Assembly (NCBI GenBank): GCA_047947115.1
Contig: CP170459.1
Location: 1,664,001 to 1,728,000, forward strand
Source of the DNA: Verrucomicrobiota bacterium
GTDB lineage: Bacteria; Verrucomicrobiota; Verrucomicrobiia; Limisphaerales; AAA164-E04
DNA length: 64,000 bases
Direction of reading: 5' to 3'
Shown piece by piece: positions 17,399 to 37,601 of the stretch. How positions within the stretch are numbered: position 1 is the stretch's first letter; each line of letters starts with the position of its first letter. Made by a program: the position numbers and the translations under genes. The notes beneath the pieces are model-generated. The model made no database searches. It was not told the origin of the DNA and saw only the letters and a list, made by a program, of their open reading frames with translations.

Positions 17399-17829
17399 GT
17401 CATGGCGATGCAAGTCGGTCCCGGGTCATCCGGAAAAGAAAGGAGCATGACAGCCCGGTCCGGAGCCACCGTCGTGTGAAAAACGATCAGAACAGTAACA
17501 AGCAGCCTAACCACCCACATACCAAACTGATCAGCATGATGCCCCCGGAGATTTCAGCCGTCCTGTAGATCCTCTGAGCCAGAGGAAGCTTGGAAGCCTC
17601 CTTTAATGGGTTGGTTTGCCATTTGGAAACCTGGCTTAACAACGTTTCGCCACCCAGGGCCAAAAGTTCCAAGAAGTATCCAACATCAACAGGGCGTCTC
17701 ATAATGCCTCAAGTTATGGGCTGTTTTGTGTGTTGCAAGCGAAATGATTTGATCCGAAGAGACTTTCGTATCCGCACATCGCCCCAGTTTCCTGTATCTG
17801 TGGGCGTTGATGATATCAAGGGGAAAGGA

Positions 17830-17862
17830 GATGGCGACCCTACCGGGGTTCGAACCCGGGTT
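17830..17862 (-). repeat. att core: duplicated 3' end of tRNA-Glu
   Basis: GATGGCGACCCTACCGGGGTTCGAACCCGGGTT identical to 37524-37556. Confidence 0.95.
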
Positions 17863-17933
17863 TCGACAGAACCTTAAAAAAACCGCTTTTTCAAGGTTTT
17901 TAGACATTCCTAGACATCCTTGACGCCCTTATC

Positions 17934-17954
17934 TGTTATGCTATTATGTTATGC
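17934..17954 (+). repeat. Putative integrase arm-type sites (left)
   Basis: TGTTATGC x2, starts 13 bp apart; same pair at 37442-37462. Confidence 0.7.
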
Positions 17955-17957
17955 ATT

Positions 17958-19103
17958 ATGGCAAGCATTCACCGGCAAAAAGGAAGGTCTTCTTGGTATT
18001 GCGCCTACACCGACCAAAATGGAGCTCGGCACTTTAAAAGTACTCGCACCTCTGACAAAAAGGAAGCGCGAAGAATCTGCAATGTGATGCAAGGGGCTGT
18101 CGATCGGATGAAATCCACCAAGCTTACACCGGCGACAGCACGTAAATTTATAGAGCGTAATCTGGAGGAACTCCTCCTTGCCTCCGGGACGCAATCCATG
18201 AGCTCAACTCCGCGGGAGTTTTTCGATGATTGGATCAAGGAGAAGGAAGTTACAACAGCGGCAAACACATTGGTAAGATACGAGTCAATAGTTCGTAATT
18301 TCCTAGACCATTTAGGACCACGAGCCATGCAACCCTTAGCAAACATCAACAGCATGGTAATCGAAAATTTCAGAAGCCACATCGCTAGATCCCAGTCACC
18401 AAGTTCAGCTAACCTAAACCTCAAGGTCATTCGCTCAGCATTCAAGAAAGCAGTCACACAAGCTTTGATTCCAGAGAATCCTGCTTCGAATGTCGAAACC
18501 ATCAAGAAACCACCCTCCCAAGCGCGCAGGCCCTTCCAACTTCCGGAACTGAAAAAGCTTTTGGAGGTGGCTAACTGCGATTGGCAAACAATGATTCTGG
18601 TTGGGCTTTACACCGGTCTGAGGCTGCGGGACTGTGCCAATCTTTGCTGGAACCAAGTCGATCTGCAAGTTGGTGAGATAACCGTTCAAACCAGCAAAAC
18701 TGCCAGAACGCAAGTGCTTCCAATGGCCACACCACTTATGAATCATGTTGCTAATTTGCCGTCAACCGATGATCCCCACTGTCCATTGGCCCCCTCCTGC
18801 TTCGATCTACCAAGTAACGTACTCTCAAACCAATTTTATGAGCTCATGACTACCGCGGGATTGGTCAAAAAGCGAACACATCAAAAATCTAAAAACGGTT
18901 TGTCGGGTTCGAGACAAGCTTCTGGTCTTGGTTTTCACTGCCTCCGGCATACCGCAACCAGTCTGCTGAAAAATGCGGGGGTTTCAGATGTAATTGCCCG
19001 TGACATAATTGGCCATGAGTCTGCTGCCATCTCCAGAGTCTACACCCACATTGACTCCGAAACAAAACGCCAAGCCGTCAACAAAATGCCATCCTTGTTC
19101 TAG
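17958..19103 (+). CDS. int: Tyrosine recombinase/integrase
   Basis: N-terminal arm-binding-like domain; YTGLRLRD, FHCLRH, IGHES, RVYTH catalytic residues intact. Confidence 0.95.
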   Translation: MASIHRQKGRSSWYCAYTDQNGARHFKSTRTSDKKEARRICNVMQGAVDRMKSTKLTPATARKFIERNLEELLLASGTQSMSSTPREFFDDWIKEKEVTTAANTLVRYESIVRNFLDHLGPRAMQPLANINSMVIENFRSHIARSQSPSSANLNLKVIRSAFKKAVTQALIPENPASNVETIKKPPSQARRPFQLPELKKLLEVANCDWQTMILVGLYTGLRLRDCANLCWNQVDLQVGEITVQTSKTARTQVLPMATPLMNHVANLPSTDDPHCPLAPSCFDLPSNVLSNQFYELMTTAGLVKKRTHQKSKNGLSGSRQASGLGFHCLRHTATSLLKNAGVSDVIARDIIGHESAAISRVYTHIDSETKRQAVNKMPSLF

Positions 19104-20561: not shown

Positions 20562-20972
20562 ATGAAACTAAAACTACAAATAGAAATTCCCCAAGAGGGA
20601 TGGCATCGAGCAATTTGCTCCGACATCATGGACAGAGGCTGTGTTGCAACAGAATATGGCAACAAGCATCTGGTCCGTTTCACATGGATGATCGTTCCAG
20701 AAGGCTCTTCAGAGCCGCTTCGGATCAGGAAATCCTACAACGCAACCCTGCATCCAAAAAGCAATCTGCTAAAGGATCTATCTGCATGGGTAGGTTCAGA
20801 GGAACTTCAGAACGAGTTCGATCTAATGAAGCTCAAGGGAAAGAAATGCCAACTGAAAGTAGCGCATTTCGAGGCCGAAGGTCAAACCATGGCCAAGGTA
20901 GTGGAAATCAAACCATTAACAGAAAACTTATCAATTGGGGAGGGTGTGTACTCTCCCAACTCAAATTTATGA
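20562..20972 (+). CDS. Phage-type OB-fold/ssDNA-binding-like replication protein
   Basis: PQEGWHRAIC.DI.D.G...Y.ATLHPKSNL.K.L..W...LKGKKCQL.V pattern of phage replication accessory proteins. Confidence 0.6.
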   Translation: MKLKLQIEIPQEGWHRAICSDIMDRGCVATEYGNKHLVRFTWMIVPEGSSEPLRIRKSYNATLHPKSNLLKDLSAWVGSEELQNEFDLMKLKGKKCQLKVAHFEAEGQTMAKVVEIKPLTENLSIGEGVYSPNSNL

Positions 20973-21988
20973 AACAGTTAAAAGTTCAAACTCCTACCAA
21001 GGTGCAGAGTCAAATTAAACAACTCAAACAAGCGCTTCCACTCCCAGATCTGATGGAAGCAATGGATTTCGGCGATTATGCCAAAAAATCATGTTCTTCA
21101 CCCTTCAGGGACGATAAGAATCCAAGTTTTGGGATTTATCAAGTTGAGACCAATTGGTTGTTCAAAGACCACGGAACAGGACTTGTTGGAGATGAAATTC
21201 AATTCATTGCCACTGTTCACGGTTTCGATCGGCACAAAGATTTTGCCAAGGTGTTGGACATATACAGAACCCTGGCTAAGGTTGCCCCACCAAAGCGGAT
21301 CCGCCCTTTGCGCAGGACCAAGGATCAACCGGTTAACTTGGATCCCAAAATGTTTCTGGATGCAGAGGCATACGAGCAAGGTCGCGGCCTTCTGAAGCCC
21401 TCTAGGCAGATTCTGCAGCAAATGGCTCATGAGAGGCCTTACGGTCTGCAGGGACTGCTCTGGGCTTCGGAGCGCGGCGTTCTTAAGTGCAAGAACGAAT
21501 GCTACTACGTATGCGACAAAACAGGGAACGTCATTGAGGGACGGCGGCTGGACAACAAGCCATTTCCAGCAGGAATTAAAAGCAAGGCCGAGCCCGGTAG
21601 TCGGAAAAGCTGGCCCGTTGGTATTGTGGAGGCATCAAAGTTCAGGAACATAGCCTTGGTTGAGGGAATTCCGGATTTCCTGATAGCACATCACATCATC
21701 CAGACCGAACAGCCAGAACCGAATTGTGCACCAGTAGGCATGCTTGGCAGCACTTCACTCATTAATGAGGCCGCGCTTCCTTTCTTCAAAGGCAAAGTGA
21801 TTAGGATCTTCGGACATGATGACGAAGCTGGAAGGCGAGCGGCATCCCGCTGGAAAAAACAGTTACTTGGTGAAGGCTGCTCTTCAGTGGAGGTATACGA
21901 ATTGTCGCCATTTGAAGGGGTGAACGACCTTTATGATTACTGGAGCCAACATGGAGACCTGTGCGAACGATGGATGCCGAACAATTAA
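20969..21988 (+). CDS. DNA primase (Zn-finger-like + Toprim)
   Basis: SPFRDDKNPSF, FKDHGTG..GD, LVEGIPD, GHDDEAG; ATGA overlap with upstream gene. Confidence 0.85.
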   Translation: MKQLKVQTPTKVQSQIKQLKQALPLPDLMEAMDFGDYAKKSCSSPFRDDKNPSFGIYQVETNWLFKDHGTGLVGDEIQFIATVHGFDRHKDFAKVLDIYRTLAKVAPPKRIRPLRRTKDQPVNLDPKMFLDAEAYEQGRGLLKPSRQILQQMAHERPYGLQGLLWASERGVLKCKNECYYVCDKTGNVIEGRRLDNKPFPAGIKSKAEPGSRKSWPVGIVEASKFRNIALVEGIPDFLIAHHIIQTEQPEPNCAPVGMLGSTSLINEAALPFFKGKVIRIFGHDDEAGRRAASRWKKQLLGEGCSSVEVYELSPFEGVNDLYDYWSQHGDLCERWMPNN

Positions 21989-23013
21989 TTCTGGATCCAC
22001 TGGATCTTGCCTTGGCGCAAGGCAATGATCTGCCGGAGATAACACCCCTCAGTCAATTGAATCCGCAGGATCGCGAGAAGCCCGCGGAATTGATTGATGG
22101 GGTGTTACACGCCGGTTGCAAAATGATCATTGGCGGTGGATCCAAATCCAACAAGACTTGGATCCTGATGCAACTTGCACATGCACTGGCTTCAGGCGGA
22201 AGCTGGTTGGATTTTAAAACTAACAAGTGCCGCGTTTTGTATGTCAATATGGAACTGCTCACTTCGTTTTTCTTGGAGCGCATGGACAATATTGATCAAT
22301 CGATCAAAGGTGTTGTCGCAAAATATCCCGATGGTGGAATGGAGAACATCGACTACTGGGGCTTGCGCGGTCACAATCCCGATATTACGACCATCAGAGA
22401 AGCCATATGCAGCCGGGCAGCTCCGATGAAGTATGGGGCCATTATCCTTGATCCGCTTTACAAGATCATGGCCGGTAGGAATGAAAACGCCGCCGGGGAA
22501 ATAGCGGAGTTTTTGAACATAATTGATGACATAGCCAACCAGACCGGTGCCGCCGTCATCAGTGCTCACCATTTTTCCAAGGGCAACCAAGCCGGCAAGG
22601 AACAAATGGATCGATTCTCAGGCAGTGGTGTATTTGCTCGAGATCCGGATGCACTGGTGACAATGACCAAGCACAAGGAAGAGGATTGTTTCACTGTGGA
22701 CTTGGTCCTGCGTAATCATCCGAGTGTTGAAAGCTTCGTGATAAGCTGGAGTCATCCTGTTTGTACAAGAGTTGACTTCGATCCTTCTGATCTGAAGACC
22801 AAGGCAGGAGCAAGCAAGAAGTATTCATCAGAGCAATTGCTTGAGTTGTTGCCGGTTTCAGGTTGCAAAACAAAGGACTGGCTCAAGCTTGCCAGAGAAG
22901 AGACAGGAATGAGCGAACGTACTTTTCACAATTTGCTCAAGCAGCTTGAGCATGATGGTTCAGTGACCAAGGAACCTAAGACTCGTATCTGGACTACTGC
23001 AGCGTTGCAGTGA
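21970..23013 (+). CDS. RepA-like AAA (AAA_25) replicative helicase with C-terminal wHTH
   Basis: Walker A GGSKSNKT, VLYVNME, Walker B IILDP, HHFSK, SGSG. Confidence 0.88.
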   Translation: MDAEQLILDPLDLALAQGNDLPEITPLSQLNPQDREKPAELIDGVLHAGCKMIIGGGSKSNKTWILMQLAHALASGGSWLDFKTNKCRVLYVNMELLTSFFLERMDNIDQSIKGVVAKYPDGGMENIDYWGLRGHNPDITTIREAICSRAAPMKYGAIILDPLYKIMAGRNENAAGEIAEFLNIIDDIANQTGAAVISAHHFSKGNQAGKEQMDRFSGSGVFARDPDALVTMTKHKEEDCFTVDLVLRNHPSVESFVISWSHPVCTRVDFDPSDLKTKAGASKKYSSEQLLELLPVSGCKTKDWLKLAREETGMSERTFHNLLKQLEHDGSVTKEPKTRIWTTAALQ

Positions 23014-23122: not shown

Positions 23123-23227
23123 AAACGCACAGGTAAAAAGTAGACGCCGGAATACACCCAGCGACAGCCATCCGATCAACTCTGAGCGGAGTTGACTGGA
23201 ACGCCCCGTTGGTTAGATTCATTGAAA

Positions 23228-23509
23228 ATGATCAGACCAACTTTTGAAATCGAGGGAGGCGACGACGATTTTGAGCTCGTGTATTCTCCATTGTGCCAAG
23301 TCATCAGCATTGGCGACGACTCTGTTTCCGTTAAAATTTACGGAGACGGAGAAGGCAAATGGATACTTGAGGTTGAAGACGAATACGATAATTCGACCGT
23401 CTGGGATGATCCCTTTGATACCGATCAGGAGGCTCTGGACGAAGTTCTTAAAACCATACGGGAAGAAGGGATCTGGTGTTTGATTGGCGAACCAGACTCG
23501 TCCGACTAA
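23228..23509 (+). CDS. Small acidic hypothetical protein
   Basis: VSVKIY...WILEVEDEYDNSTVWDDPF.TD..AL; protein-like composition. Confidence 0.7.
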   Translation: MIRPTFEIEGGDDDFELVYSPLCQVISIGDDSVSVKIYGDGEGKWILEVEDEYDNSTVWDDPFDTDQEALDEVLKTIREEGIWCLIGEPDSSD

Positions 23510-23565
23510 GTTTTATGACACAAAACAGTATTGTCGAACACATCTGCATGATGTAGGTTGTTTTC

Positions 23566-23684
23566 GTCATCAGGAACGGTCCTGCAAGTTGCAAGACCTG
23601 GCAACCTGGCTGGGAGAGCCAAGGTGCCTTCGATACTGAAAAGTATCGGATGAGCCACTCAATTGAGTGGAAAGTAAGTCTCCT
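23566..23684 (+). ncRNA. SAM-I/IV riboswitch aptamer
   Basis: P1 TCATC/GATGA; P2 GGTC/GACC; GGCAACC...GGTGCC P3; P4 CGATACT-GAAA-AGTATCG; P5 CCACTC/GAGTGG; L3 GGAGA can pair with 3' TCTCC (PK-2). Confidence 0.8.
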
Positions 23685-23693
23685 CCGGATTTT

Positions 23694-23733
23694 AGACCCG
23701 CGTTCCTGATTGGAGTGCGGGTCTTTTGTTTTT
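23694..23733 (+). terminator. Riboswitch expression-platform terminator
   Basis: AGACCCGCGTTCC...GGAGTGCGGGTCT followed by TTTGTTTTT. Confidence 0.8.
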
Positions 23734-23779
23734 GGATTCCTGATGGCTGTTAGTGCAAACAACCAAAAGAAAGTCAGGA

Positions 23780-24028
23780 ATGAATAACTGGACACTATCA
23801 ATAAGAATTCGGGAATCCAACCCCGACCATCACCTATTCCAAAATCACGGCACCTGGTGGTGTCACTTCTGGGCGATTGAGGATGGATTCCGACAGGAAC
23901 GGTTCCGCGTGAATCTCCAAACAAAATCCCGCACTAAGGCCCACCAGAAACGGAATTCATTGCTTCGTGACGGTTGGAAAAATGTTGTTTCGAATTCAAA
24001 AGAAGGGGTCCAAAATGCCTTATTCTAA
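23780..24028 (+). CDS. Small basic hypothetical protein downstream of SAM riboswitch
   Basis: NPDHHLFQNHGTWWCHF...RFRVNLQTKS...RN; resembles beta-sheet DNA-binding domains. Confidence 0.7.
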   Translation: MNNWTLSIRIRESNPDHHLFQNHGTWWCHFWAIEDGFRQERFRVNLQTKSRTKAHQKRNSLLRDGWKNVVSNSKEGVQNALF

Positions 24029-25608
24029 CCCGGATATTTCATCAAAACCAGAAATACCCACAAATTGGTTTTCATTGTAGCTCAAGGTTGAGTTTGGAGA
24101 GGTCAGACGCACCTTTTTAAGGTTCTTTTCGAATTGAGGATACACTCCCCCAATCCCCCATTGTTTTTCGACGTGCCGGGGCAGCACTCTGGGCATGTTA
24201 TCCTGTGTTCAGTTTGGCGTGAACATGTGCAAAGAGTTTTTGATAGGGGTATGCCTGACTCATCAATAATCGAATGCGTCTTGTGTTTTTCAGGACGATG
24301 GTTCCAATTTTGAACAGTTTCAGTCGGATGGTGCTGACCTGGGCTCGAGCCATTTCACTTCCTTTCAATCCAACTCGGCGGATGGTTTCCATCAGCACAT
24401 AGGCAGCACTGCTGAGCAGGAGTCGAAACTGATTGCTCCACCATTTATGACAACTGGTTCGGTCGGCGAATAATCCAAGCTGTTGTTCCTTGATGCGGTT
24501 TTCCATTTCTCCCCGAGCACAATAAATCTTCTCGTAGATATGCTGGGCATTGCCCGAAAGGTTACTCACCACAAATCTGGGATTGCTGCCCTGTCGATTA
24601 TGTTCCGCTTTAATGATCACCATTCTTTCCTGATCCCAGGAATGTGCCTTGTATTGGAGACAGGCAAAGTGGCGTTGTTTTTCACCAGTCTTTTCAAAGA
24701 GAACAGCGGATTCTGAAATAAGGTTTTGTCCTTGTTCAAGCAATCGTGGGTTTTTGGCGATTCCAACAACATACTTCACTTCATGACGTTCGCACCAACG
24801 CAACATTCTCCAACGACAAAACCCGGAGTCTCCCCGGAAGATGATGCGTACTTTGGGCCATTTTTGGCGCAGGCGTTGAACTAGCAATTTGAGAATGGCC
24901 CATGCATGACGTGCAGGATCAATATTGCTTGGGCGTAGATAACTGACCAAGAGTTGCTCGCCACAAAAGACATAAAGAGGAAGGAAACACCAGCAATCGT
25001 AATACCCGTGAAAACTGCGTCTCTCCTGGCCGCCATGAACTCGATCATCAGTTGCGTCAAAATCCAGAATCAGTTCTTCCGGAGCTTTTTTGAAAGAGTT
25101 GATAAAAGTTTCAATCAAGACTTTCGAAAAATCCATCGCTGTTTGGCGATCTGCCCGAGCTTCAAAGCGACACAAAGTAGGACTGCTGGCAAGCGAATCA
25201 GAACGTTCCACAGCACTTTGAATGAGTGGATCCTTTCGGAGGCAATCGTGATCGTTGAGATCTTCGTATCCCAAGGCCAGGCCGTAAATGCGTTGACGCA
25301 ACAAATCGAGAGTGGAATGAGCCGTCCGGCCAGATTGACGAGGATCGGTCATCACCTTGGAAATCGATTTGGTAAGACCAAGTAACCGATCAGCCTGCCT
25401 TAAAACAAAGCACCACCGTCCGAGGAAATGTGACCACCGCTGAAAGAAGCCTCAATTTTTCGTCGTTCAAGGCTTGGAAACTCAAAAGAAATCTGGTTAC
25501 ACTTTGTCATTAGCGGAGTTTTTACTGGTTTTTGTTTCAACACCAACAACCATATGGGATTATCCCAAAAACTTCGCTAATTTTTTTTAATTTAATGAAA
25601 TATCCGGG
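24029..25608 (-). mobile_element. IS1380-family element
   Basis: Terminal IRs CCCGGATATTTCAT / ATGAAATATCCGGG; CTA on both flanks. Confidence 0.88.
24198..25510 (-). pseudogene. IS1380 transposase, frameshifted near 25403
   Basis: N-terminus MTKCNQ...FSGGHISSDGGAL out of frame with GYEDLND, LDFDATDD, RGDSGF, RGEMENRIKE. Confidence 0.85.
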
Positions 25609-25611
25609 CTA

Positions 25612-27096
25612 GCAGCCCGTTAAAAAAGTCACAATTCTTCACGAAAAGAATCGTGATTGATCACATGATCAAGTAAAGTCTTTGCCATGGCACTTGGCAA
25701 ACGGAAAACGAAACAGCAAGAACTGTTCATTGCCTCCAATCAGATTCCCAAAACGCCGGCTCATCCGTTTTACTCCAAACTCAATCAGGTTTTCGATGAG
25801 TGCGGATTTGATGCTTATGTTGAAGAGTTGTGCGCCCCGTTTTACAAGAATTTTGGTCGGCCAGGTATTGCGCCCGGAATTTATTTCCGAATGATTTTCA
25901 TCGGATATTTTGAAGGGCTCAACAGTCAACGAGGTATCGCATGGAGATGTCATGACAGCCTTTGCCTGCGTGAATTTCTCGGTATCAGTTTGACGGAGAA
26001 AACTCCTGTTCACGCATCGATGACAATTATCCGTCAACGCTTGTCCGATGATGTGTTTCACAAGGTTTTCCTTTTTGTCCTTGAACAACTCAATGAGAAA
26101 AAGCTTTTGAAGGGAAAAACTCTTGGTGTTGATGCCACCACCCTGGAAGCCAATGCAGCCATGCGTAGCATCGTGCGCAAAGGCACGGGTGAGGATTGGA
26201 AAGAATACCTTCGTGAACTGGCCAAAGAAGAAGGTATTGAAAATCCGAGTGATGAAGATATTCAGCGCATCGACCGAGGGCGTAAGGGGAAGAAAGTTTC
26301 CAACAAAGAATGGCAAAGCAAGTCAGATCCGGACAGCCGCATTACCAAGATGAAAGATGGGCGCACACATCTTGCATATAAGGCTGAACATTCGGTGGAC
26401 TTGGAAACCGAGGCAATTGTTTCTTGTCATGTCACACATGCAGATCAAGGCGATACAACCACGGGGCCTGAGAGCCTCATCTTGGCTGAAGCCAATCTAC
26501 AATTAATCGAATCAGAAAGGACCGTTGAAGAGGCGGTGATGGACAAGGGATATCACAGCAACGCATTGTTGGAACGGCTCACGCAGTGGGGTATCCGCAC
26601 ATACATACCAGAGAAGAAGCAAAAGAAGCGTAAGTGGGTGGACAAACCGGAATGCTACGAACACGCATTCCGTGGTAATCGACGAAGAGTTCGGAGTGTC
26701 AAGGGTAAGCGACTGAGTCGAAAACGAAGCGAACTTGTGGAGCGAACATTTGCTCATGTGTGCGAAACAGGAGCTGGACGTCGTACCTGGCTCCAGGGAA
26801 TGGAAAATGTCACCAAGATTCACACACTGAAGTGCGCAGCATTCAACCTCGGATTGCTGATGCGGAAAATCTTTGGCCTCGCCAAGCCAAGAAACTGGGA
26901 AGCGAGCCTCGCTACCGCTTTGACGGCTGCTTTTGTCATAATTTTTGGCGAATGGATGACTCTGGGGGCGATAAATATGTCTCCCGCCGTCCTTTTACTG
27001 ATTTCCACCATTTTATTATGCAGCTTGATGAAATCGAAGCGGGACGAGATTCGGATCATTCGGTTTTTCGAAATTGGCACTTATTAAACGGGCTGT
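25612..27096 (+). mobile_element. IS1182/IS5-like element
   Basis: IRs CAGCCCGTTAAAAAAGT / ACTTATTAAACGGGCTG, flanked by TA on both sides. Confidence 0.8.
25687..27087 (+). CDS. DDE transposase (DUF772 + DDE), intact
   Basis: GRPGIAP, VDATTLEANA, SDPDSR, MDKGY, VERTFAH. Confidence 0.92.
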   Translation: MALGKRKTKQQELFIASNQIPKTPAHPFYSKLNQVFDECGFDAYVEELCAPFYKNFGRPGIAPGIYFRMIFIGYFEGLNSQRGIAWRCHDSLCLREFLGISLTEKTPVHASMTIIRQRLSDDVFHKVFLFVLEQLNEKKLLKGKTLGVDATTLEANAAMRSIVRKGTGEDWKEYLRELAKEEGIENPSDEDIQRIDRGRKGKKVSNKEWQSKSDPDSRITKMKDGRTHLAYKAEHSVDLETEAIVSCHVTHADQGDTTTGPESLILAEANLQLIESERTVEEAVMDKGYHSNALLERLTQWGIRTYIPEKKQKKRKWVDKPECYEHAFRGNRRRVRSVKGKRLSRKRSELVERTFAHVCETGAGRRTWLQGMENVTKIHTLKCAAFNLGLLMRKIFGLAKPRNWEASLATALTAAFVIIFGEWMTLGAINMSPAVLLLISTILLCSLMKSKRDEIRIIRFFEIGTY

Positions 27097-27152
27097 TATG
27101 CAAAAAAAGCTGGAAAACCATATCTAAAGCTGCAAATTTATCACTGTTCAAG

Positions 27153-28265
27153 ATGATACTTAATTATTTTCTCAAATCTCAGTCACTTAAATGGGCCTTT
27201 TGGACTTTCCTTTCCATGGTGCTTTGGCTTGGTTCATCTGATTTATCGGGGCAAACAATTAATTACCAGGGACGTATTGTGGGAGATGATGGAAACCCTG
27301 TTAATGCGTCCTGGGATGTAGAAGTTAATGTTTACGAAAGTGAGGATAGTGAAGTAGCTATATACACAGAGGTGGTAAATAGTGTTGCAATTAAAAACGG
27401 TCTTTATTCTTTCGGTTTTGGCGCTGAAGGGGTTGGGAAAAGGCGGCAAACTGAAATTTTGGGCTTTGGAGATGCTTCCACTAAAGTTTTTAACTTTACA
27501 CCAAGTCGTGGCATGATCCCCGGGTCCATCAAAATTAGTGACTCAAAATATACTTGGAGCGATCTTGAAGGTGCTTCAGATGCAGGTAACTTTATAGGGT
27601 CTGTTAATATTCCTGATAACAACGTTTCAGCTATCTATTTTAATGATGCGCCGGATCATTCTGTTTCAATTCAGCTTGCTTATTCTTATCAAGTTAGCAG
27701 TCTAAGCACTATTCTGATAGATCATGATGAGGCGTTTGTTCAAGTTCAAGTTGGTGACTATGTTTTCCCGAGAGAACGACTTTCTTATACCTTTTTTGCA
27801 TATCGATCGGCTTATTCTAATAATGAGCTCAAGCCCAAAGCCTATCGTCCTGTGATTTATGATAGTAATGGAACAACATCAAATATGGGGCCAATCGGAG
27901 CCGGTATCTACACAATTCCAGTACCAAAAACTGTAATATCCGACTACTCGGTAAAGATCTCTGGGACGATGAATGGCGTCCCGGACATAACACATGCTTC
28001 GGGTGGCTCTCGGAGCTCCTTGATTGTAACATTAATACGTGAAAATATTTCAACAGGAGAAGTTGAAAGGATTCTATTAAATTCCACTTATTCTTTTCAT
28101 TCCTACGAAAAGATCGAGTTTACACGTCAGGTGGATATAAACAAATGGATTGATTCGTCCGATAATTTCTCCTTAATCATCGAGTTAAATTTGTATTCTC
28201 AAGCAGGCAATTCGTGGTTTCGTGGTGGGCATATATCAGCAAAAGCTTCGGTTTTTCACAACTGA
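27153..28265 (+). CDS. Secreted 'INYQGR' fibre-like protein, paralog 1
   Basis: Signal peptide then QTINYQGRI...NGLYSFGFG; N-terminal half aligns with 34231-35319. Confidence 0.75.
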   Translation: MILNYFLKSQSLKWAFWTFLSMVLWLGSSDLSGQTINYQGRIVGDDGNPVNASWDVEVNVYESEDSEVAIYTEVVNSVAIKNGLYSFGFGAEGVGKRRQTEILGFGDASTKVFNFTPSRGMIPGSIKISDSKYTWSDLEGASDAGNFIGSVNIPDNNVSAIYFNDAPDHSVSIQLAYSYQVSSLSTILIDHDEAFVQVQVGDYVFPRERLSYTFFAYRSAYSNNELKPKAYRPVIYDSNGTTSNMGPIGAGIYTIPVPKTVISDYSVKISGTMNGVPDITHASGGSRSSLIVTLIRENISTGEVERILLNSTYSFHSYEKIEFTRQVDINKWIDSSDNFSLIIELNLYSQAGNSWFRGGHISAKASVFHN

Positions 28266-28291
28266 TAATCAGGCTTCAATAAGGTTTTTTT

Positions 28292-31200
28292 ATGCAATTA
28301 TTTTTGAAAAAAGCATTGCTCGCCATATTATACTTTTCTTGCTCCTGCCCCATTTGGGCAGCAGAGCAAGCAGCACATGTTATAGCGAGTGGTTCGGTAT
28401 CCGAGTCCGGTGGATTCACTAACCACTCTGCCATCGGCCAATCATTCGCATATTTATCAGGCAACGCTGCTGGGGCGTTCGTGAATTATGGTGGGTTCAT
28501 CAATGGCTTTGAAGGCGGTTTTGCCGTTGATTCAGACGGCGATGGTTTGAGTGACGAGGAAGAGCTTGAATTGGGGATCAATCCGAACTCTAAGGACACG
28601 GATGGTGAAGGCCTTGAAGATAAGGCGGAAGTTGATTTTGGAAGCAATCCCTTGATCCAAGATACTGATGGAGATGGATCCAATGATTACGAGGAATTCC
28701 TCAATGGAACCGATCCCAATGTTTTTGACATTACCTACGAGTGGCCTGAACCATCTGCTATCGTTTACGGCACGCCCTTGCCAGAGAGTGCGTTTGAAAT
28801 AACCACCAATGTTGAGGGTAACGTTTCCCATCCCTTTGGCATGGCCAAGCCTGGTGATATACTCAATGCAGGTAATCGGCTTTTGGCGGTTAATTTTATT
28901 GCAAATACAGGTGGAACTAAGCTCCTTACTCAAAATATTTCCGTCACCCAAATGGCCATCAACCTGATTTCTGCTGCTGATTCTTACCCGTTTGGTTCTA
29001 CCCTAGAAGATATCTTGATAACATCCGCTGGATTTGTGAATGGTGATTCTTATGCTGACATTGATGCAGCTCCAGCACTAGATTTTTCCCAGGTCAATTT
29101 CTCATTGCCCGGGGCATACACTGTTTCCTATTCCGGTGCCATTGATAACAACTATTTCATTGCTGATGGGGCCTTCGAAATCAGCATCAGTAGTGAAGGG
29201 TTTGATTCCTTCTCATTTCTTACTGAAGATCTGGTAGCCTATTTTCCTCTGGATGGTAATGGACTGGATTTCAGTGGTAATAGTCACCACGGCGAAGGTG
29301 ATTTTGAGTTTGCGGAGGATCGATTTGGCAGATCTCGGGCAGCTTACAAATCAAACACCGAGACATTCTTTTCAACTGGTCCAACAAGTCACCCAACAGG
29401 TAATGCATCATTTACCTACTCTTGTTGGTTTAATGGAATGAACGGACTAAGCGATCCAGATATCCTAATTGCGACTGGCGGTGACCAGGAACACGAAGCT
29501 TCTTTTTTTGGGATTAGTAACGACCAACTTGTTTTTGATACCATTGGAGATGTCTCCGAGAAAGGACAGATTCCATCGAATGGTTGGCATCACGCTGTTT
29601 TTACAAAAAATGGAAATAGTGCGTCTTTTTATCTAAATGGTAATTTTGTCAGTGATGCACACATTACCCAGCAAAATATTGAAGTTACCAATATCAGAAT
29701 TGGTTGGAGCGGATATTCGACCATGAACAAAGGTCAGCATTTTGTTGGTTCAATAGATGATGTTCGCATATACGACAGGGCCCTAGATAAGAATTCCATC
29801 AAGTTGATTTATGCTTATGAATCAGACGAAACCAATTATCCATTCGTAAACAACTCCCCTGTGGCCTCAGACCAAACATTGAACTTAGGACAAGGATCCT
29901 CAAAGGAGATTAAGCTTTCTGCCGACGACCCGGATGGTGACTCCGTCGTTTTTTCTGTAATATTGAACCCGATCAACGGTACCCTCAGCGGTACGGCACC
30001 CAATCTTATCTACTCTCCTAATGCCGATTTTGTTGGCACAGATACCTTTACCTTTAAAGTGAATGATGGGGACTTGGATTCCAATGTGGCTACGGTGACC
30101 ATCACGGTGAATCCCGTTGAGGAAATATTCGTTTGGGACCCATCGGACATTGTCTATGGTCAAGATGCGTTGATTCACATCTTTAACGCCACTTCAACAA
30201 TTCCAGCCAGTATCTTCTACTTTGACGCTGATACGAAACTACCGTTCGTGGCCGATTCCAAACTCTCAGCCGGTGAATACTCCTTGGAAGTTTTATTCAT
30301 GCCAGATGACCTTGCATCCCACCTGCCTAAACGGGAAAGCGCTACCATTTCTGTATCCAAGGCCCGTCTGGATGTCGCTGTTCCGAGCATTGAAGTGGAA
30401 GTAGGGGGCCCCATCCCAAATTTAGGTATTTCCTACTCTGGATTTGTCTGGGATGAGACCCCTGAATCGCTCATCTCAGCACCGATCATCAATCTGGGTG
30501 TTATTGATTTTGCTACGCCTGGAGTCTATCAGGGTAGTCTTTTGGGAGGTGAATCCTATAATTATGACCTGGTCGTAAATCCATTCACCATCACGGTCAC
30601 TCAGCCTGGGATCCAAATTGTCTGGGATGATTTGCCTGAGCTGACCTACGGGGATTTGTTGAGCGACAATGTGCTGAATGCCTCAGCCAATGTGCCTGGT
30701 TTATTTGTTTATCAGCCAGGTCCAGGTTCGCTGCCCGATGTGGGCCAAACCATTGTCAAGGCGACCTTTGTTCCGGATGATCTTGTCTCCTACTTGCCAG
30801 TGGTGACACAGAAGACCTTGATTGTTAATAAGAGGACGCTTGAGGTTTCCATGCCTGATTTGGAGGTCGAAAAGGGCAGCCCTCTCCCAGCGCTGACATC
30901 CTATGAGATCTCAGGGTTTGTGGGGCAAGATGCGGAAGGTGATTTGGACAACCCACTTGTCTTCAGCATTCAGGGTGGGAACCCTTCTCAAGTGGGGCAG
31001 TATCCCATAACAATGAGTTTTGCTGGTGATAATCAATATGTAGTGAACTTTTCTGGTGCCAAGCTGGTGATCACTGAACCTGTGTTCGTTAGCCAAATTC
31101 AGTGGGCTGAGATACCGGATAATTCACTTGAATACGGAGACATTCTCGATGACAGCACTCTAGGTGCTCAGTCAGAGGTGCCCGGGCTGATTATCTACAC

Positions 31201-34198
31201 ACCTCCTATGGGAACCCGAGTGGATGTCGGTGAGCTGACCATCAGGCTCACTTTTGTCCCCGATGATTTGATTGATCATAAGACAGAGGTCATCACGCAA
31301 ACCGTTTCGGTTGCCAAGCGTCGATTGGTGGCGACAATGGAAGATGTCTCGGTCATTCAAGGTCAATCTGATGTTCCACTTGATCGCTACCAGGTTACAG
31401 GTTTTGTCGAAGGTGAGTCTGAAGCGGACTTGGATAATCCAATTGAATTTAAGGTTGCTGGAGGTATTCCTGCGCAGCCAGGTTCCTACCCCATTGAGAT
31501 GATCTTCAACGGTGATGACCACTATGAAGTGATGTTTTTGGGGGCGAACCTCGTCGTGCAGAGTGTGCAGCCGGAACTTTCATGGGTTGTCACAGATCAC
31601 ACCTACGGTGATAGCATTGCGGCCAATGTGCTCACCGCATCAAGCAATTTACCTGGCGACATCACTTACCGAATCGTCGGTAGCGACGAGACTGTTGACG
31701 CCAATACCCAACTTGGTGCTGGAAGCCATACCATCATGGCCACCTGGACTTCCGGTAATGCCGGAGTGGAGCCGATTAGCGAAATCAGACAGGTGAATAT
31801 TGCCAAGGCGCAGTTGTTACTCACAGTTCAGCCTTTGATTGTGCAGCCAGGTGCCGCCTCAGTGCCACCAATTGATTATGTCATTGAAGGTTTCCAGTAT
31901 GAGGAGACAGAGAGCGTCTTTACCTTTACCCTCATATTCGACCTCGGAGGTAGTTACAAGAGACCAGGTGAATATCCTCTGACATTGTCTGCCAACTGGC
32001 CTGAGCAGCCCAATTATGAGGTGCTGACCATTCCTAGCACGATGACGGTCATGGGTGAAGAAATGGAAGTCACTTGGGATCTGCAGCAAGACCAATACAT
32101 TTATGGTGATTTGGCTTCCAAGGCACTGCTCTCTGCTGAAAGTAATGTGGAGGGCCAGTTTCTCTATCAAATAAAGAAGGTGGGGGGGCAAGTAAGTGGT
32201 ATCTTGACTAGCGGCACGGTGTTGCCTGTCGGGGAACACGTGGTGACCATGACCTTCATTCCTGAAGAGAAGCCGCAAGACCTTGTAGTCATTGAGAAAA
32301 CGATCACCGTTTCCAAGGCTAACCTGGTCGTGAGAGCCAATGGTTTGAACATAATTGTAGGTTCGCCTTATCAGAACCAGCTCTCAGCCAGCTATGAAGG
32401 TTTTGTGTTTGAAGACGCAGAAAAAGATCTTCAGGTGAAACCACGGCTGTCTGTTCCTAACTTCGTTCAAAACCTGGCCGGCCAATATGAAATCCAGGTT
32501 TCTGGTGGCAGTGATGAAAGCTATGACTTCACCTATGTTTCTGGGGTCTTGAACGTGGCCGAAAACGCTAGTTTTCCCGATATCGCTTTTGTGGAGCCAG
32601 TGGTTAACCCAGTCAATGTGGCTGAGGGCAGGGGGGTCACGCTTCGGTTTCAGCTGGATGGTGTCGTTCCAACCAACGCTTCAGTCAGTGTGAGCAAGGA
32701 TGGTTTGCCATTTGGTAAAACACGTATTGATGGCGACAGCATTTATCTGGATATCGATGCGGCGGTGAGATCTGATTCGGGTAACTACATCGCCAGATTA
32801 GCCATTCCTCAATTCAAGGCGATTGAATCCTCGTCTCTGGAACTCAATGTGATCTACAAATCATTGCTAGGCATGGGATTGCTGAACTATCGCCAGAGCA
32901 ACCAGCCCATGTTGGGTGCCCCGATTGTGAATGATGACAACTCGGTCGTGATAAGCACCAAAGATGGCACTTTCTACGGATATCAATCCAATCCAGCCAC
33001 AGGAGATATCGAGCCTGCTTGGGCCTATTCGATGGGGCAGGATATCCTCGGGAATATCCTCAAAGGTGAAGACGATAATTATTACGCACTCTCAGACAAA
33101 GGAACGCTGATTAAATTCAAGCAAGAGGCCACCTCAGGAACTCAGGTCTGGGAGTTTGACACGGACGAACAGGGATCCCTCAGCAACGGTTTCACCAACT
33201 CACCTACCATCCTCAACGATGAGATCGTTGTCTTTGGGTGGATTGATGGACACGTCTATGCCGTGAATCGGCAGACAGGTGACTTGGTATGGAAGACGGA
33301 CTTGGGTGGCATGGTCTTTACCCCTGTAGCTGTTTATGAAGACAAGATTTACACCCATACCTGGAATACTTGGTATTGTGTGTTGGATTCCAATGGTCAA
33401 ATTCTTCACAAAAATCCTATCAGCTACGGGCTTTATCGCCAACAACCTTCGGTGGATACAGATGGAACTGCCTTTCTGGGCTGCGATGATAGTTATGTTT
33501 ATGCTTTTTGGAGTAGTGGACTGTTGAAGTGGAGTTATGAGTGCGAGAATATTGTTTCCGGTGGTATCGTTGTGGGTGACCACTTCATTGCCTTCATTGA
33601 CCAGGAAGGCATTCTCTATTATCTCAAGAAGAGTACTGGTGCCGTCATTAAGAAATCTCAGTTGGCCAATACTCCAGGTTCCACATCCCATCTGACCATT
33701 GGCTATGATGGGACCATCGTGGTGGGTAGCCAGAAAGGAGGGCTTTTTGCCTTCACCGCTGATGGTCAGGTCATCTGGGAGTATCAAAGCGCCCCGACAA
33801 CCTGGGGTTCTCCATCGATCGGTCGTGATGGTAAGGTGTTTTTCGGTTCTGACGATGGCTATTTCTACGCAGTCCAGGGACATACCTCATTGGGTATGCA
33901 ATATCCCTGGTATAAGCAGGGAGCCAATCGCCTGAATACAGGCGGCCTTTGGTTGGCTACTCAGGATCCTGAATCAGGTGGGGGCTCTGGTAGCGGAGAA
34001 GGCCCAGATTTGATTGCTGGGATTGAAGGTGGGAACATCGTGATCAATGTGATCGCACATGACAAGCAGCGTGTCTACAAAGTCTACACCAGTGATGATT
34101 TGAAGTCTTGGGTCGAGGTTCCAGGGTATCGCCCCAATGTGAATGGCGAAATCAAACTTCCAGCGAATAGGCGGTCGCAATTTATCAAAGTTGAATAG
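28292..34198 (+). CDS. Large secreted surface protein/adhesin (DxDxDG repeats, LamG, Ig/tandem-95, MBG-like repeats, PQQ-type beta-propeller)
   Basis: 1968 aa; LVAYFPLDGN..D.SGN and GSIDDVRIYDRAL (LamG); GTDTFTFKVNDG; repeated W...YG...L.A / GFV..E units; IWEY..GSPSIG.DG.VFFGSDDG. Confidence 0.9.
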   Translation: MQLFLKKALLAILYFSCSCPIWAAEQAAHVIASGSVSESGGFTNHSAIGQSFAYLSGNAAGAFVNYGGFINGFEGGFAVDSDGDGLSDEEELELGINPNSKDTDGEGLEDKAEVDFGSNPLIQDTDGDGSNDYEEFLNGTDPNVFDITYEWPEPSAIVYGTPLPESAFEITTNVEGNVSHPFGMAKPGDILNAGNRLLAVNFIANTGGTKLLTQNISVTQMAINLISAADSYPFGSTLEDILITSAGFVNGDSYADIDAAPALDFSQVNFSLPGAYTVSYSGAIDNNYFIADGAFEISISSEGFDSFSFLTEDLVAYFPLDGNGLDFSGNSHHGEGDFEFAEDRFGRSRAAYKSNTETFFSTGPTSHPTGNASFTYSCWFNGMNGLSDPDILIATGGDQEHEASFFGISNDQLVFDTIGDVSEKGQIPSNGWHHAVFTKNGNSASFYLNGNFVSDAHITQQNIEVTNIRIGWSGYSTMNKGQHFVGSIDDVRIYDRALDKNSIKLIYAYESDETNYPFVNNSPVASDQTLNLGQGSSKEIKLSADDPDGDSVVFSVILNPINGTLSGTAPNLIYSPNADFVGTDTFTFKVNDGDLDSNVATVTITVNPVEEIFVWDPSDIVYGQDALIHIFNATSTIPASIFYFDADTKLPFVADSKLSAGEYSLEVLFMPDDLASHLPKRESATISVSKARLDVAVPSIEVEVGGPIPNLGISYSGFVWDETPESLISAPIINLGVIDFATPGVYQGSLLGGESYNYDLVVNPFTITVTQPGIQIVWDDLPELTYGDLLSDNVLNASANVPGLFVYQPGPGSLPDVGQTIVKATFVPDDLVSYLPVVTQKTLIVNKRTLEVSMPDLEVEKGSPLPALTSYEISGFVGQDAEGDLDNPLVFSIQGGNPSQVGQYPITMSFAGDNQYVVNFSGAKLVITEPVFVSQIQWAEIPDNSLEYGDILDDSTLGAQSEVPGLIIYTPPMGTRVDVGELTIRLTFVPDDLIDHKTEVITQTVSVAKRRLVATMEDVSVIQGQSDVPLDRYQVTGFVEGESEADLDNPIEFKVAGGIPAQPGSYPIEMIFNGDDHYEVMFLGANLVVQSVQPELSWVVTDHTYGDSIAANVLTASSNLPGDITYRIVGSDETVDANTQLGAGSHTIMATWTSGNAGVEPISEIRQVNIAKAQLLLTVQPLIVQPGAASVPPIDYVIEGFQYEETESVFTFTLIFDLGGSYKRPGEYPLTLSANWPEQPNYEVLTIPSTMTVMGEEMEVTWDLQQDQYIYGDLASKALLSAESNVEGQFLYQIKKVGGQVSGILTSGTVLPVGEHVVTMTFIPEEKPQDLVVIEKTITVSKANLVVRANGLNIIVGSPYQNQLSASYEGFVFEDAEKDLQVKPRLSVPNFVQNLAGQYEIQVSGGSDESYDFTYVSGVLNVAENASFPDIAFVEPVVNPVNVAEGRGVTLRFQLDGVVPTNASVSVSKDGLPFGKTRIDGDSIYLDIDAAVRSDSGNYIARLAIPQFKAIESSSLELNVIYKSLLGMGLLNYRQSNQPMLGAPIVNDDNSVVISTKDGTFYGYQSNPATGDIEPAWAYSMGQDILGNILKGEDDNYYALSDKGTLIKFKQEATSGTQVWEFDTDEQGSLSNGFTNSPTILNDEIVVFGWIDGHVYAVNRQTGDLVWKTDLGGMVFTPVAVYEDKIYTHTWNTWYCVLDSNGQILHKNPISYGLYRQQPSVDTDGTAFLGCDDSYVYAFWSSGLLKWSYECENIVSGGIVVGDHFIAFIDQEGILYYLKKSTGAVIKKSQLANTPGSTSHLTIGYDGTIVVGSQKGGLFAFTADGQVIWEYQSAPTTWGSPSIGRDGKVFFGSDDGYFYAVQGHTSLGMQYPWYKQGANRLNTGGLWLATQDPESGGGSGSGEGPDLIAGIEGGNIVINVIAHDKQRVYKVYTSDDLKSWVEVPGYRPNVNGEIKLPANRRSQFIKVE

Positions 34199-34230
34199 TA
34201 AATATCTTAAGAACAAGGAAATTTAAACTA

Positions 34231-35319
34231 ATGAAAAAGTTTTTTTGCACGTTTCTCTCATTGTTTTGGGTGACTCAGGTGGCGGGTCAGACGATTAATT
34301 ACCAGGGTAGGCTTACCGACGCCGGTGGGGAGCCAGTTAATGATACTGTGAATGTATCTTTGAAGATATATGATAGTGAGACGGAAGGGGCAGTTGTTTA
34401 CACCGAGGATGTGGGCGAGATCGAAGTAGTGAGTGGACTTTATTCTTTTAATTTCGGCTTGAATGGTAAGAGTATTGCAAATTCAGTGGAATTAATTGGG
34501 ACAGGGGATGGGGAAGTAAAGGTTTTCAATTACACAACGTATCACTTACCAATCGATGCGGAAATAGAGCTTTATGATGGGTTGTTTAGTTGGTCAAATG
34601 TAGGCGGCGCTTCAGACGCAGGCCAGTTTATTGGGAGCGTCAACATTGCAGAAAAATCTGTCACAGGAATTTACATAGCTTCTCCTCCGCCACAGGGCCG
34701 GAATATATATGTGGCCTACCAATATACCCTTGATGGTATAACTGGGGCTTTGACTGACCACGATTCGTCATACTTGGAGGTTAGCATCAATAATACAAAG
34801 CTTAGGCGGGAGAAAATAGCGGATTCGCCAATTTCTGTATTTGCAAAAAATATTTTGCGAGTAAATAAAAAAAATGTTCCTATTAATATAGTTCATCAAG
34901 GAAGGTTTGTTAATAATTTCAATGGGTTCAAATATTGTGACACACCCGCTTTCTTAATCGATTTTCCGGAAGTCGATTTCAGGGAACTGGTTTTCAAAGT
35001 GCGAGGTTTATCGCTTGATGACAATGTTGGCGGAAATGGTCCGTGCCATAGCAATTATAATGGGAAGCATTCCACTTCCGATGTGAGAATTAAATTGGTT
35101 GGCAGGAACCTTGAAACATTAGAGCTTGAGGAGTTGGCCGATATTGATGTTTACAGTAATCAAACCATGCCGCTTTCTAAAGATTACAATCTTTCCGGAT
35201 TTCTCCATCTGCAGCAGACCTATATGCTGGGGGTGCAAATTAAGGCCGCTGCCAGAGGAATCGGAGGCGGTGTGACAGCGGGCTACATACGGATCCCTTG
35301 CTACTGGGAAATGAAATAG
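34231..35319 (+). CDS. Secreted 'INYQGR' fibre-like protein, paralog 2
   Basis: Signal peptide then QTINYQGRL...SGLYSFNFG...GASDAGQFIGSVNI. Confidence 0.8.
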   Translation: MKKFFCTFLSLFWVTQVAGQTINYQGRLTDAGGEPVNDTVNVSLKIYDSETEGAVVYTEDVGEIEVVSGLYSFNFGLNGKSIANSVELIGTGDGEVKVFNYTTYHLPIDAEIELYDGLFSWSNVGGASDAGQFIGSVNIAEKSVTGIYIASPPPQGRNIYVAYQYTLDGITGALTDHDSSYLEVSINNTKLRREKIADSPISVFAKNILRVNKKNVPINIVHQGRFVNNFNGFKYCDTPAFLIDFPEVDFRELVFKVRGLSLDDNVGGNGPCHSNYNGKHSTSDVRIKLVGRNLETLELEELADIDVYSNQTMPLSKDYNLSGFLHLQQTYMLGVQIKAAARGIGGGVTAGYIRIPCYWEMK

Positions 35320-35461
35320 ACCTAGTGTTCTTATTTTCAAACGAAAATCCTTTTTCTTCTAAGTGTCAAAAATTTATTTCTTATTTGACTTTAATAACAT
35401 CCCAGACACCCATTTACGCCGAAGAATAAAAATTATCTCGCTCCATAACTATAACCAATTC

Positions 35462-36088
35462 ATGAAAAACATCCCAAAATATTGCTCTGCTGCTATTGTA
35501 GCAGCTCTCACCATGGCAGCGTCCTCTGCGAATGCTGAGAATTCAGTCATTCTCGACTATGACTACGCCTCTGCTGGGTATTTCTACAGAGACTACGACA
35601 CTGCACTGGGTAACGTGGACGGACACGGCGCAGGCATCGAAATTTCCAAGATGTTGGCAGGAGATTTTGGGCTGAGTTTGACCTCGATGGCAGGAAGTGT
35701 CTCCGATCTGGACGCTGACATGTGGGGCATTTCGCCCACATTGTTTTACGTGGTCAAAATATCCGAAACCATGAACTTGGTGCCGAATGTTGCCTGGAAC
35801 GTTGAGCATGTAGACTACAGCTCACTCGGAATGGACAATACTACCTCTGAGGTGCAGTTTGGCTTGAGGCTCGATACGGCAGTCACCGAATCCTTTCAGT
35901 TAAGTGTTGGCACGGAGTATCGCAACGTTGTGGGTTCCGATCTCCCTCTAGACGATGACGATCGCTGGGACTTCTATCTTGGTGCTAAACTTGCACTGTC
36001 CGATCAATTAGGGCTTGGGGCTCAGATATTGACGACTACTGAGAATGTCGACTTCGGTGGGCAGATTGGCTTGGAGTGGCATTTTTAG
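35462..36088 (+). CDS. Outer-membrane beta-barrel protein
   Basis: Signal peptide, alternating amphipathic strands, C-terminal GLEWHF (BAM-type signal). Confidence 0.8.
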   Translation: MKNIPKYCSAAIVAALTMAASSANAENSVILDYDYASAGYFYRDYDTALGNVDGHGAGIEISKMLAGDFGLSLTSMAGSVSDLDADMWGISPTLFYVVKISETMNLVPNVAWNVEHVDYSSLGMDNTTSEVQFGLRLDTAVTESFQLSVGTEYRNVVGSDLPLDDDDRWDFYLGAKLALSDQLGLGAQILTTTENVDFGGQIGLEWHF

Positions 36089-37441: not shown

Positions 37442-37462
37442 TGTTATGCATAGGTGTTATGC
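37442..37462 (+). repeat. Putative integrase arm-type sites (right)
   Basis: TGTTATGC x2, 13 bp apart, plus inverted CATAACA at 37425. Confidence 0.7.
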
Positions 37463-37525
37463 TGTTGCATGGTCGAGGAATGAAGGTATGACTGAAGCTT
37501 CTCTATGAGAAATACTTGAGGGGGA

Positions 37526-37601
37526 TGGCGACCCTACCGGGGTTCGAACCCGGGTTACCGCCGTGAAAGGGCGGTGTCCTAGACCACTAGACGATAGGGT
37601 C
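37526..37601 (-). tRNA. tRNA-Glu(TTC)
   Basis: 76-nt cloverleaf: GACCCTA acceptor, CCGCC-CTTTCAC-GGCGG anticodon arm, GTTCGAA T-loop, CCA end. Confidence 0.97.

Follow-up and report, generated by a model that had tools for sequence, protein, structure and literature searches.

A SAM-I/IV riboswitch in a conserved and apparently undescribed cassette ahead of a gene for a small integrase-arm-like protein

The window, that is the whole stretch of 64,000 nucleotides of contig CP170459.1 that was analysed (genome G000, a Verrucomicrobiota bacterium), contains a 19.7-kb integrative element at a tRNA-Glu gene. The element is bounded by 36-nt repeats that are 97% identical, and it has a lower G+C content (46% vs 51%). 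Apart from the leader and small gene that are our main subject, the following features were found in it.

17827-17862, no strand assigned: attL, the left border, a duplicate of the tRNA-Glu 3' end as found at 37521-37556
17934-17954, no strand assigned: two TGTTATGC repeats, 13 nt apart, beside attL, likely integrase arm-type sites
17946-19103, + strand: tyrosine integrase (PF00589, 2.8e-16) with an N-terminus weakly similar to the small-protein family (DUF6538, E 0.029)
20972-23013, + strand: a primase-like gene with weak matches to CHC2 zinc finger/Toprim, together with a helicase-like gene of the AAA_25 type, both from Pfam
24025-25612, - strand: IS1380-type insertion that interrupts the next small ORF four codons in (repeat, Pfam, sequence)
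25610-27098: a further IS (DUF772/DDE, Pfam) after IS1380
37442-37462, no strand assigned: another pair of TGTTATGC repeats, again spaced by 13 nt, close to attR; these too are likely arm-type sites
37521-37601, - strand: attR and tRNA-Glu(TTC), with the att repeat at 37521-37556 (tRNA match, repeat)

Four of the seven TGTTATGC copies in the window lie beside the two att cores, where 0.006 copies are expected per 400 nt. Four small ORFs of the element had no Pfam match. The cargo at 27087-36088 is one of large secreted proteins; it comprises a protein of 1968 aa in which TSP3 and LamG domains were recognised, two related proteins of 360-390 aa and an outer-membrane barrel. The attL side and the 5' end of the integrase gene (17845-18353) are duplicated at G000:C1:157103-158670, where they are joined to a piece of IS1380. 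The first-pass annotation had described the region as a satellite-like island. This view is supported as far as the integrase, the att repeats and the primase-like and AAA_25 genes go.

The leader and the small gene, here called the cassette, lie immediately before IS1380.

23514-23521, + strand: TATGACAC box, candidate binding site of P0001, 9 nt 5' of the predicted -35
23531-23559, + strand: predicted promoter, -35 TTGTCG and extended -10 TG-TAGGTT (seen by eye; absent from a consensus promoter scan)
23562-23686, + strand: SAM-I/IV riboswitch aptamer with P1-P5 and the L3-3' pseudoknot (Rfam RF01725)
23694-23733, + strand: intrinsic terminator, including the first complement (23701-23710) to the aptamer 5' strand (terminator and pairing predictions)
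23736-23782, + strand: second complement (23736-23746) and start-region hairpin (folding, 44-locus survey)
23780-24028, + strand: P0001, 82-aa basic protein, stand-alone homologue of integrase N-terminal arm domains (ORF, profiles, model)

An allele of this site without the IS was seen in a contig of run X1. As IS1380 has cut off the downstream payload, P0001 is the only intact output of the window copy.

Only two Rfam matches were obtained in the whole window, a tRNA and RF01725, the latter with a score of 48.6 bits at a gathering cut-off of 41.1. P1 is formed by 23567-23571 and 23649-23653, the core by GGCAACC (23600-23606) and GGTGCC (23623-23628), P4 spans 23630-23649 and P5 23655-23670. 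The pseudoknot pairs GGAGA (23613-23617) with TCTCC (23679-23683). Indeed, a full SAM-clan core with P4, P5 and precisely this L3-3' pseudoknot had led to the earlier assignment to SAM-I/IV, which the Rfam search bears out. According to PMC6890682 and PMC2864571, SAM-I/IV RNAs have an undivided P2, possess P4 and lack PK-1. In predicted folds of the window RNA, the sole interruption of P2 is a 1x1 mismatch, and P4 forms a hairpin of 9 bp; no PK-1 was detected upon inspection of the aptamer. The Rfam alignment shows that the equivalents of U7, G11, A45, U57, G58 and U88 (SAM-I numbering), which are labelled as SAM-pocket positions in a supplement figure of PMC2864571, are all kept.

The survey covered 87 non-redundant loci with the small gene (2 further loci at contig ends being excluded), of which 44 have the aptamer and 43 have no detected aptamer. 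The 44 loci were chosen with a pattern that fixes several core bases, and they are kin, many coming from one family; the counts given for them therefore represent conservation and not independent trials. The complement of the pseudoknot 5-mer is present in 35 of 43 loci when paired with their own partner. When partners were exchanged between loci and the 5-mer differed (1420 pairings), it was present in 2.8%. A test on the longest helix did not separate own pairings (42/44) from cross pairings (66%).

Altogether, the window RNA is almost certainly a SAM-OFF riboswitch, for which SAM binding is predicted. The typical context of SAM-I/IV, with sulfur, methionine or SAM genes downstream, is not found here, since the next gene is that for P0001. 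This odd context, and the changed CAACC core in 2 of the 44 relatives (L009 and L012), might suggest a SAM-I/IV-like variant with another ligand. We consider this most improbable for the window RNA, because its pocket positions are retained and the payloads of the cassette include SAM enzymes. As for the two relatives themselves (L009:1278-1416 and L012:1234-1399), CAACC is replaced by CTACC or CAGCC and a UGAAG/CUUCA pseudoknot is common to both; possibly, these are variants with an altered ligand.

P0001 has a pI of 10.5, and the ORF at 23780-24028 thus agrees with the earlier description of the regulated gene as encoding a non-metabolic, basic protein of 82 aa. The length is 82 and not 80 residues because the TGA of the second genomic copy is TTA in the window. 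P0001 matched no Pfam family, NCBIfam and PHROGs hold no family that describes it, and annotated phages yielded no match. Its model (pLDDT 87.6) has strands at 19-22, 25-34 and 38-45 and a helix at 51-73, which is the three-stranded antiparallel sheet followed by a helix of the arm-type fold. A Foldseek search with this model, which had been proposed as a check, returned nothing at E≤0.001, and nothing significant emerged when the family profile was searched against PDB sequences. Structure comparison produced weak matches to the HPI integrase arm (3jtz, Z 3.8, rmsd 3.0 over 50) and lambda Int (1z1b, Z 3.6), as well as to AP2 (6sy0, Z 4.2); arm and AP2 matches ranged from Z 3.0 to 4.2, while the top match was DUF1488 (Z 6.1).

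The small protein belongs to a large Verrucomicrobiota family, for which a profile built from 10 close homologues retrieved 632 clusters (50% identity level) and which has the conserved motif N-P-x-H-H-L-W/F-x-N-x-G-T-W. DUF6538 matches 90 of 117 family members at E≤0.1, P0001 itself not being among them, and among named Atlas clusters the nearest ones are families of arm domains. Of the long proteins that the family profile matched weakly, 11 were checked; every one is a tyrosine integrase matched at its N-terminus, with E-values between 2e-9 and 1e-5 within the fetched loci. The integrase of the window element was aligned to the family with an hhalign probability of 50% (E 1.6e-4). The likeness to beta-sheet DNA-binding domains that had been proposed earlier is thereby upheld at the family level. 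Judged by these profile matches, the family is a homologue of the arm domain at the N-terminus of tyrosine integrases. P0001 can be read as a stand-alone arm-type domain that probably binds DNA. The small protein is also encoded on five viral contigs, one of which has both box and riboswitch.

The terminator stem (23694-23724) has 13 pairs and is followed by a U-tract, and all 10 bases of 23701-23710 form Watson-Crick pairs with 23569-23578. This exact complementarity had been noted in the first-pass annotation, which gave 23701-23710 as the 5' arm of the terminator; 6 of the 10 bases belong to the arm and 4 are located in the loop. A second complement, previously noted at 23737, was mapped to 23736-23746. 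Bases 23736-23744 of it pair with 23773-23781 in a 9-bp hairpin that covers the ribosome site and the AUG. As the second complement is part of this hairpin, the prediction is that a single aptamer governs termination as well as translation. The leader folds with a z-score of -8.1 (vs 200 shuffles). According to the folding calculations, the AUG is unpaired with a probability of 0.94-0.97 in the unconstrained leader, where the aptamer 5' strand lies on the second complement, and of 0.14-0.37 when P1 is enforced. The energies of the terminator folds are -72 to -74 kcal/mol and that of the antiterminator is -64 kcal/mol. Since the antiterminator is the less stable one at equilibrium, read-through must be kinetic and be won during transcription.

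This arrangement is widely conserved among the 44 loci with gene and aptamer. The 5' strand of P1 has one complement or more in 41 of them (shuffle mean 3) and two complements in 25 (shuffles 0.08). A terminator was detected in 31 of the 44 loci, and a start-region hairpin of at least 6 bp in 33 of 41 (shuffles 8). The window leader differs from that of the second genomic copy, and yet it has its own matching 9-bp start hairpin. On the strength of these folds and their conservation, we consider it likely that one aptamer exerts two-tier control, of transcription and of translation.

Other leaders in the set are organised differently. In loci of family f46 (e.g. L033:1320-1514), the gene follows rpmB without a SAM riboswitch, and an invariant TCATCTG pairs with the start-codon region in 8 of 8 sequences, with no covariation; an Rfam search of this leader gave no match. 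The pairing hints at another RNA switch. L097, L098 and L106 have a SAM-I/IV aptamer with a single P1 complement over the start region, before a different family of proteins of 140-190 aa.

Upstream of the aptamer, TATGACA occurs in either orientation within 110 nt in 27 of the 44 cassette loci (shuffles 0.9), and in 17 loci it is positioned at -53 to -56 from the AUC of the aptamer, just 5' of a -35-like hexamer. It was found at 1 of 16 SAM-I/IV loci that do not have the gene. Of the 43 loci that have the gene but in which no aptamer was detected, 12 have the box, and aptamer remnants persist at 5 of these 12. The box is absent from 17 of the 44 cassette loci and from 31 of those 43. Based on this co-occurrence, the TATGACA box is likely to be the binding site of the small protein. 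The single sites in varying orientation would fit a monomeric arm-type binder. One genome, G006, has leader and box and no match to the small-protein gene, so another protein could bind the box there. Immediately 5' of the box, in both genomic copies, lies an ORF for a very acidic protein of about 93-105 aa (23192-23509), which is well covered by contigs of estuary and seawater RNA runs.

Three other roles of the box were considered and rejected. It is not a general promoter element, the 8-mer being present in 3 of 1629 promoters of this genome where 9.6 were expected. It is not a site of a met regulon, as just one of 29 primary metK loci has it at a distance of up to 300 nt, and it is not enriched in the intergenic DNA of G000. 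Finally, one site in G000 had raised dnaA as a target, and the box precedes dnaA in only 1 of 28 loci. The cross-genome tests of the box before other genes covered metK and dnaA.

These data bear on the idea that P0001 is a trans regulator of host methionine and SAM genes, a counterpart of MetJ that would be made at low SAM only. SAM control of a DNA-binding protein would fit this idea, and one TATGACA (C1:3690283) lies just before an ORF that we take, from its sequence, to be metH-like. We nevertheless regard such a role as very unlikely, given the scarcity of the box near metK and dnaA and its lack of intergenic enrichment. Moreover, most primary metK promoters of the class (L140-L166) share a different motif, ATC...GATA..TTGAT, about 60-100 nt before metK, which resembles a SahR-type operator.

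A 117-sequence profile was run on 401 genomes of the phylum and detected the small-protein gene in 83, with no more than a weak match in 14 of these. It is present in 3 of the 22 genomes of the family to which the window genome belongs; of eight relatives with a given taxon, seven are Verrucomicrobia and one belongs to the Planctomycetota. Among 149 other genomes, RF01725 gave 24 matches, followed by this gene in 8 cases, by a metY-like gene in 9, by a metK-like gene in 2 and by unknown genes in 5 (named by sequence reading). G000 itself has only two RF01725 matches, in the window copy and in a near-identical copy on another integrase-bearing element, for which an att repeat was sought and not found. 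In the second copy, a 62-aa ORF comes first, then the homologue, then genes that are HEAT-like, MoxR-like and of the CRISPR type I-E (again named by sequence reading). A third element, located at tRNA-Ser, has at its end no more than the 5' half of the aptamer (G000:C1:3854290-3854352, 98% over 63 nt), without box and without gene. The stretch was matched by metatranscriptome runs in 20 rows from 19 studies, only one with half of the words; the four matches inspected are contigs, which are not informative on transcription, strand or ends.

It could be argued that P0001 acts on recombination, binding the arm-type sites of the integrase and tuning excision or integration at low SAM. The homology of the family to integrase N-termini, weakly including that of this element, is in line with this, the arm-like TGTTATGC repeats share TTATG with the box, and both full genomic copies as well as the truncated third leader reside on integrase-bearing elements. 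However, most genomes of families f46 (30 of 31) and f45 (21 of 35) have the gene, at stable sites flanked by housekeeping genes and with no integrase in the 3-8 kb retrieved, and the N-terminus of the second element's integrase looks unrelated by eye. We therefore judge the recombination reading unlikely. Nor is the cassette peculiar to a satellite, as the gene is near-universal in these two families; to that extent the earlier proposal is not supported in its wording.

The genes that follow the cassette were named with a Pfam run on 77 proteins around the loci (mostly from 164 neighbouring ORFs) and 41 proteins from wider regions, and otherwise by eye. In at least 13 of the 44 loci, a convergent gene is the next long one, which leaves the small gene as sole output. 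This is relevant to the view that the window copy is a passenger, which had a role in an ancestral element and has been useless here since IS1380 cut the operon. Besides the interruption of the next ORF by IS1380, such a view can draw on the decayed or gene-less leaders that exist in relatives and in this genome, on the rarity of the gene in its own family, and on the divergence of the two genomic copies, between which 9 amino acids and 7 silent codons have changed. Yet box, promoter, aptamer, terminator and start-codon hairpin are intact in the window copy, the first four being nearly identical to those of the second copy and the hairpin being matched to its own leader, and a small gene on its own is a normal output. 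We thus find it quite improbable that the window copy is a mere passenger.

MetK or a MetK-like protein follows the cassette in 4 of the 44 loci (L088, L093, L204 and L207), and in both of the genomes checked among these four it is an extra copy. The question whether homologues head chromosomal met operons, raised in the first-pass annotation as a possible objection, can therefore be answered in the negative, and none of the loci that were read showed metY, metH or a cys gene as the direct follower. MoxR-like ATPases follow in 5 loci, and MoxR/vWA genes are among the payloads. In three loci the next gene is SAM-lyase-like: L096, and L091 and L026 with aptamer remnants. PF23780 was matched below its cut-off in 17 of 20 homologues of these proteins, their best Foldseek matches are the phage SAM lyase structures 6znb/6zm9 (E 3e-4), and, by eye, their G, Y, E and Q occupy positions similar to those of the Svi3-3 residues named in PMC7877911. 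The proteins (L091:4144-4821, L096:4126-4713, L026:2734-3363) are cellular and carry an extra N-terminal domain. One of the three loci is 2 kb from an integrase-like gene and another adjoins DUF4007/Ssp-like genes; their leaders do not have the usual complement, and the strand 5' of P1 seems to be used instead. Neighbours of the cassette further include Dnd genes, DUF4007, two DNA methylases, TIR-STAND genes and integrases. The cassette often adjoins restriction or other defence loci, and at several other loci it sits among housekeeping genes. In L019:4391-5017, L009:1724-2074 and L010:270-917 it is followed by a conserved protein with YxxRPxSYW (P0169) that had no Pfam or Atlas match.

Our preferred reading of the cassette is as follows. 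At high SAM, P1 would form, the terminator would fire and the gene would be off, and any read-through RNA would fold 23736-23744 onto the ribosome site and the AUG. At low SAM, the aptamer 5' strand would first pair with the nascent terminator arm, permitting read-through, and would then shift to the second complement, leaving the AUG free for the synthesis of P0001. P0001 would in turn bind the TATGACA box beside its own promoter and raise its own output, a positive feedback amplifying the low-SAM response. Activators usually sit just upstream of the -35. The feedback would also turn on whatever payload follows, so that the cassette may serve as a portable low-SAM sensor head for accessory operons such as those with an extra MetK, SAM-lyase-like proteins or MoxR/vWA systems. 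We give the whole chain, from the SAM-I/IV switch with its shut-off at two levels at high SAM to autoactivation by P0001 via the box, about an even chance of being correct. In metabolic terms, it is difficult to explain why a SAM-OFF switch should precede a SAM lyase.

In textbooks, SAM riboswitches figure as feedback regulators of sulfur metabolism. In the present case, a SAM-I/IV RNA heads a conserved cassette whose constant output is predicted to be a DNA-binding-type protein and whose variable payloads include SAM-making and SAM-lyase-like enzymes near defence loci. Through the cassette, a family of 632 protein clusters gains a predicted binding site, and the cassette would represent a compact natural single-aptamer switch with two outputs. 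Depletion of SAM by phages is documented in PMC7877911 and bioRxiv 10.1101/2023.02.27.530186; according to the latter, phage T3 destroys SAM to beat restriction and BREX. Because SAM is the cofactor of these systems, the cassette is a candidate for how cells or mobile elements notice its loss. Sensing of phage SAM depletion is something that we infer from the neighbouring genes. In its most far-reaching form, this idea holds that the cassette is a mobile, phylum-wide 'SAM alarm', in which a riboswitch-gated, autoactivating factor derived from an integrase arm flips on conflict genes when a phage or rival drains SAM; we put it forward as a speculation with a rather small chance of being right. 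Equally speculative is the assignment of the conflict genes, which would be a spare MetK restoring SAM-dependent restriction or BREX, SAM lyases and MoxR/vWA systems. If the 'SAM alarm' is true, it would imply a riboswitch as infection sensor and a new transcription-factor family domesticated from integrases. A full-text literature search, for which most subscription journals were outside coverage, gave no titles or abstracts on this cassette and no match for DUF6538. The RNA is thus a genuine representative of a known riboswitch class, in a conserved regulatory cassette that is apparently undescribed.

How does the cassette relate to known systems? With tRNA-targeted elements and phage satellites, the window element shares a tyrosine integrase, att repeats at tRNA-Glu, primase-like and helicase-like genes and the lower G+C content. 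It differs from phage satellites in that no helper-interference or packaging genes were identified in it and its cargo consists of large secreted proteins and IS elements. The fold of phage SAM lyases (Svi3-3 and T3 SAMase; PMC7877911) is likewise predicted for the proteins after the three cassette loci in other genomes, whereas the window contains no SAM lyase gene. Arm-type domains (lambda Int, HPI integrase 3jtz, Tn916; DUF6538, Arm-DNA-bind) and AP2 share with the P0001 family the three-stranded sheet plus helix, the basic character and the similarity to integrase N-termini; the P0001 family is distinguished by being free-standing, by its N-P-x-H-H-L-W/F-x-N-x-G-T-W motif and by its riboswitch control.

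The SAM-I/IV riboswitch of Weinberg et al. 2010 (RF01725; PMC2864571) has the same core, uninterrupted P2, P4, P5 and L3-3' pseudoknot as the window RNA. The window aptamer, however, controls an arm-domain gene on an integrative element, whereas 11 of the 24 other matches in the phylum precede metY- or metK-like genes. Unlike the cassette, these metY- and metK-linked loci have neither the box nor the double complement. Dual control by a single aptamer is known for other riboswitch classes, and the switch in the window would therefore be a variant and not a new principle. According to PMC9481103, the bi-mechanism tandem riboswitches (SAM-II/SAM-V and SAM-II/SAM-I/IV) likewise act on a terminator first and then on the ribosome site, as is predicted here. 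In contrast to these tandem arrangements with two aptamers, the window leader possesses one aptamer, a strand of which would have two successive partners.
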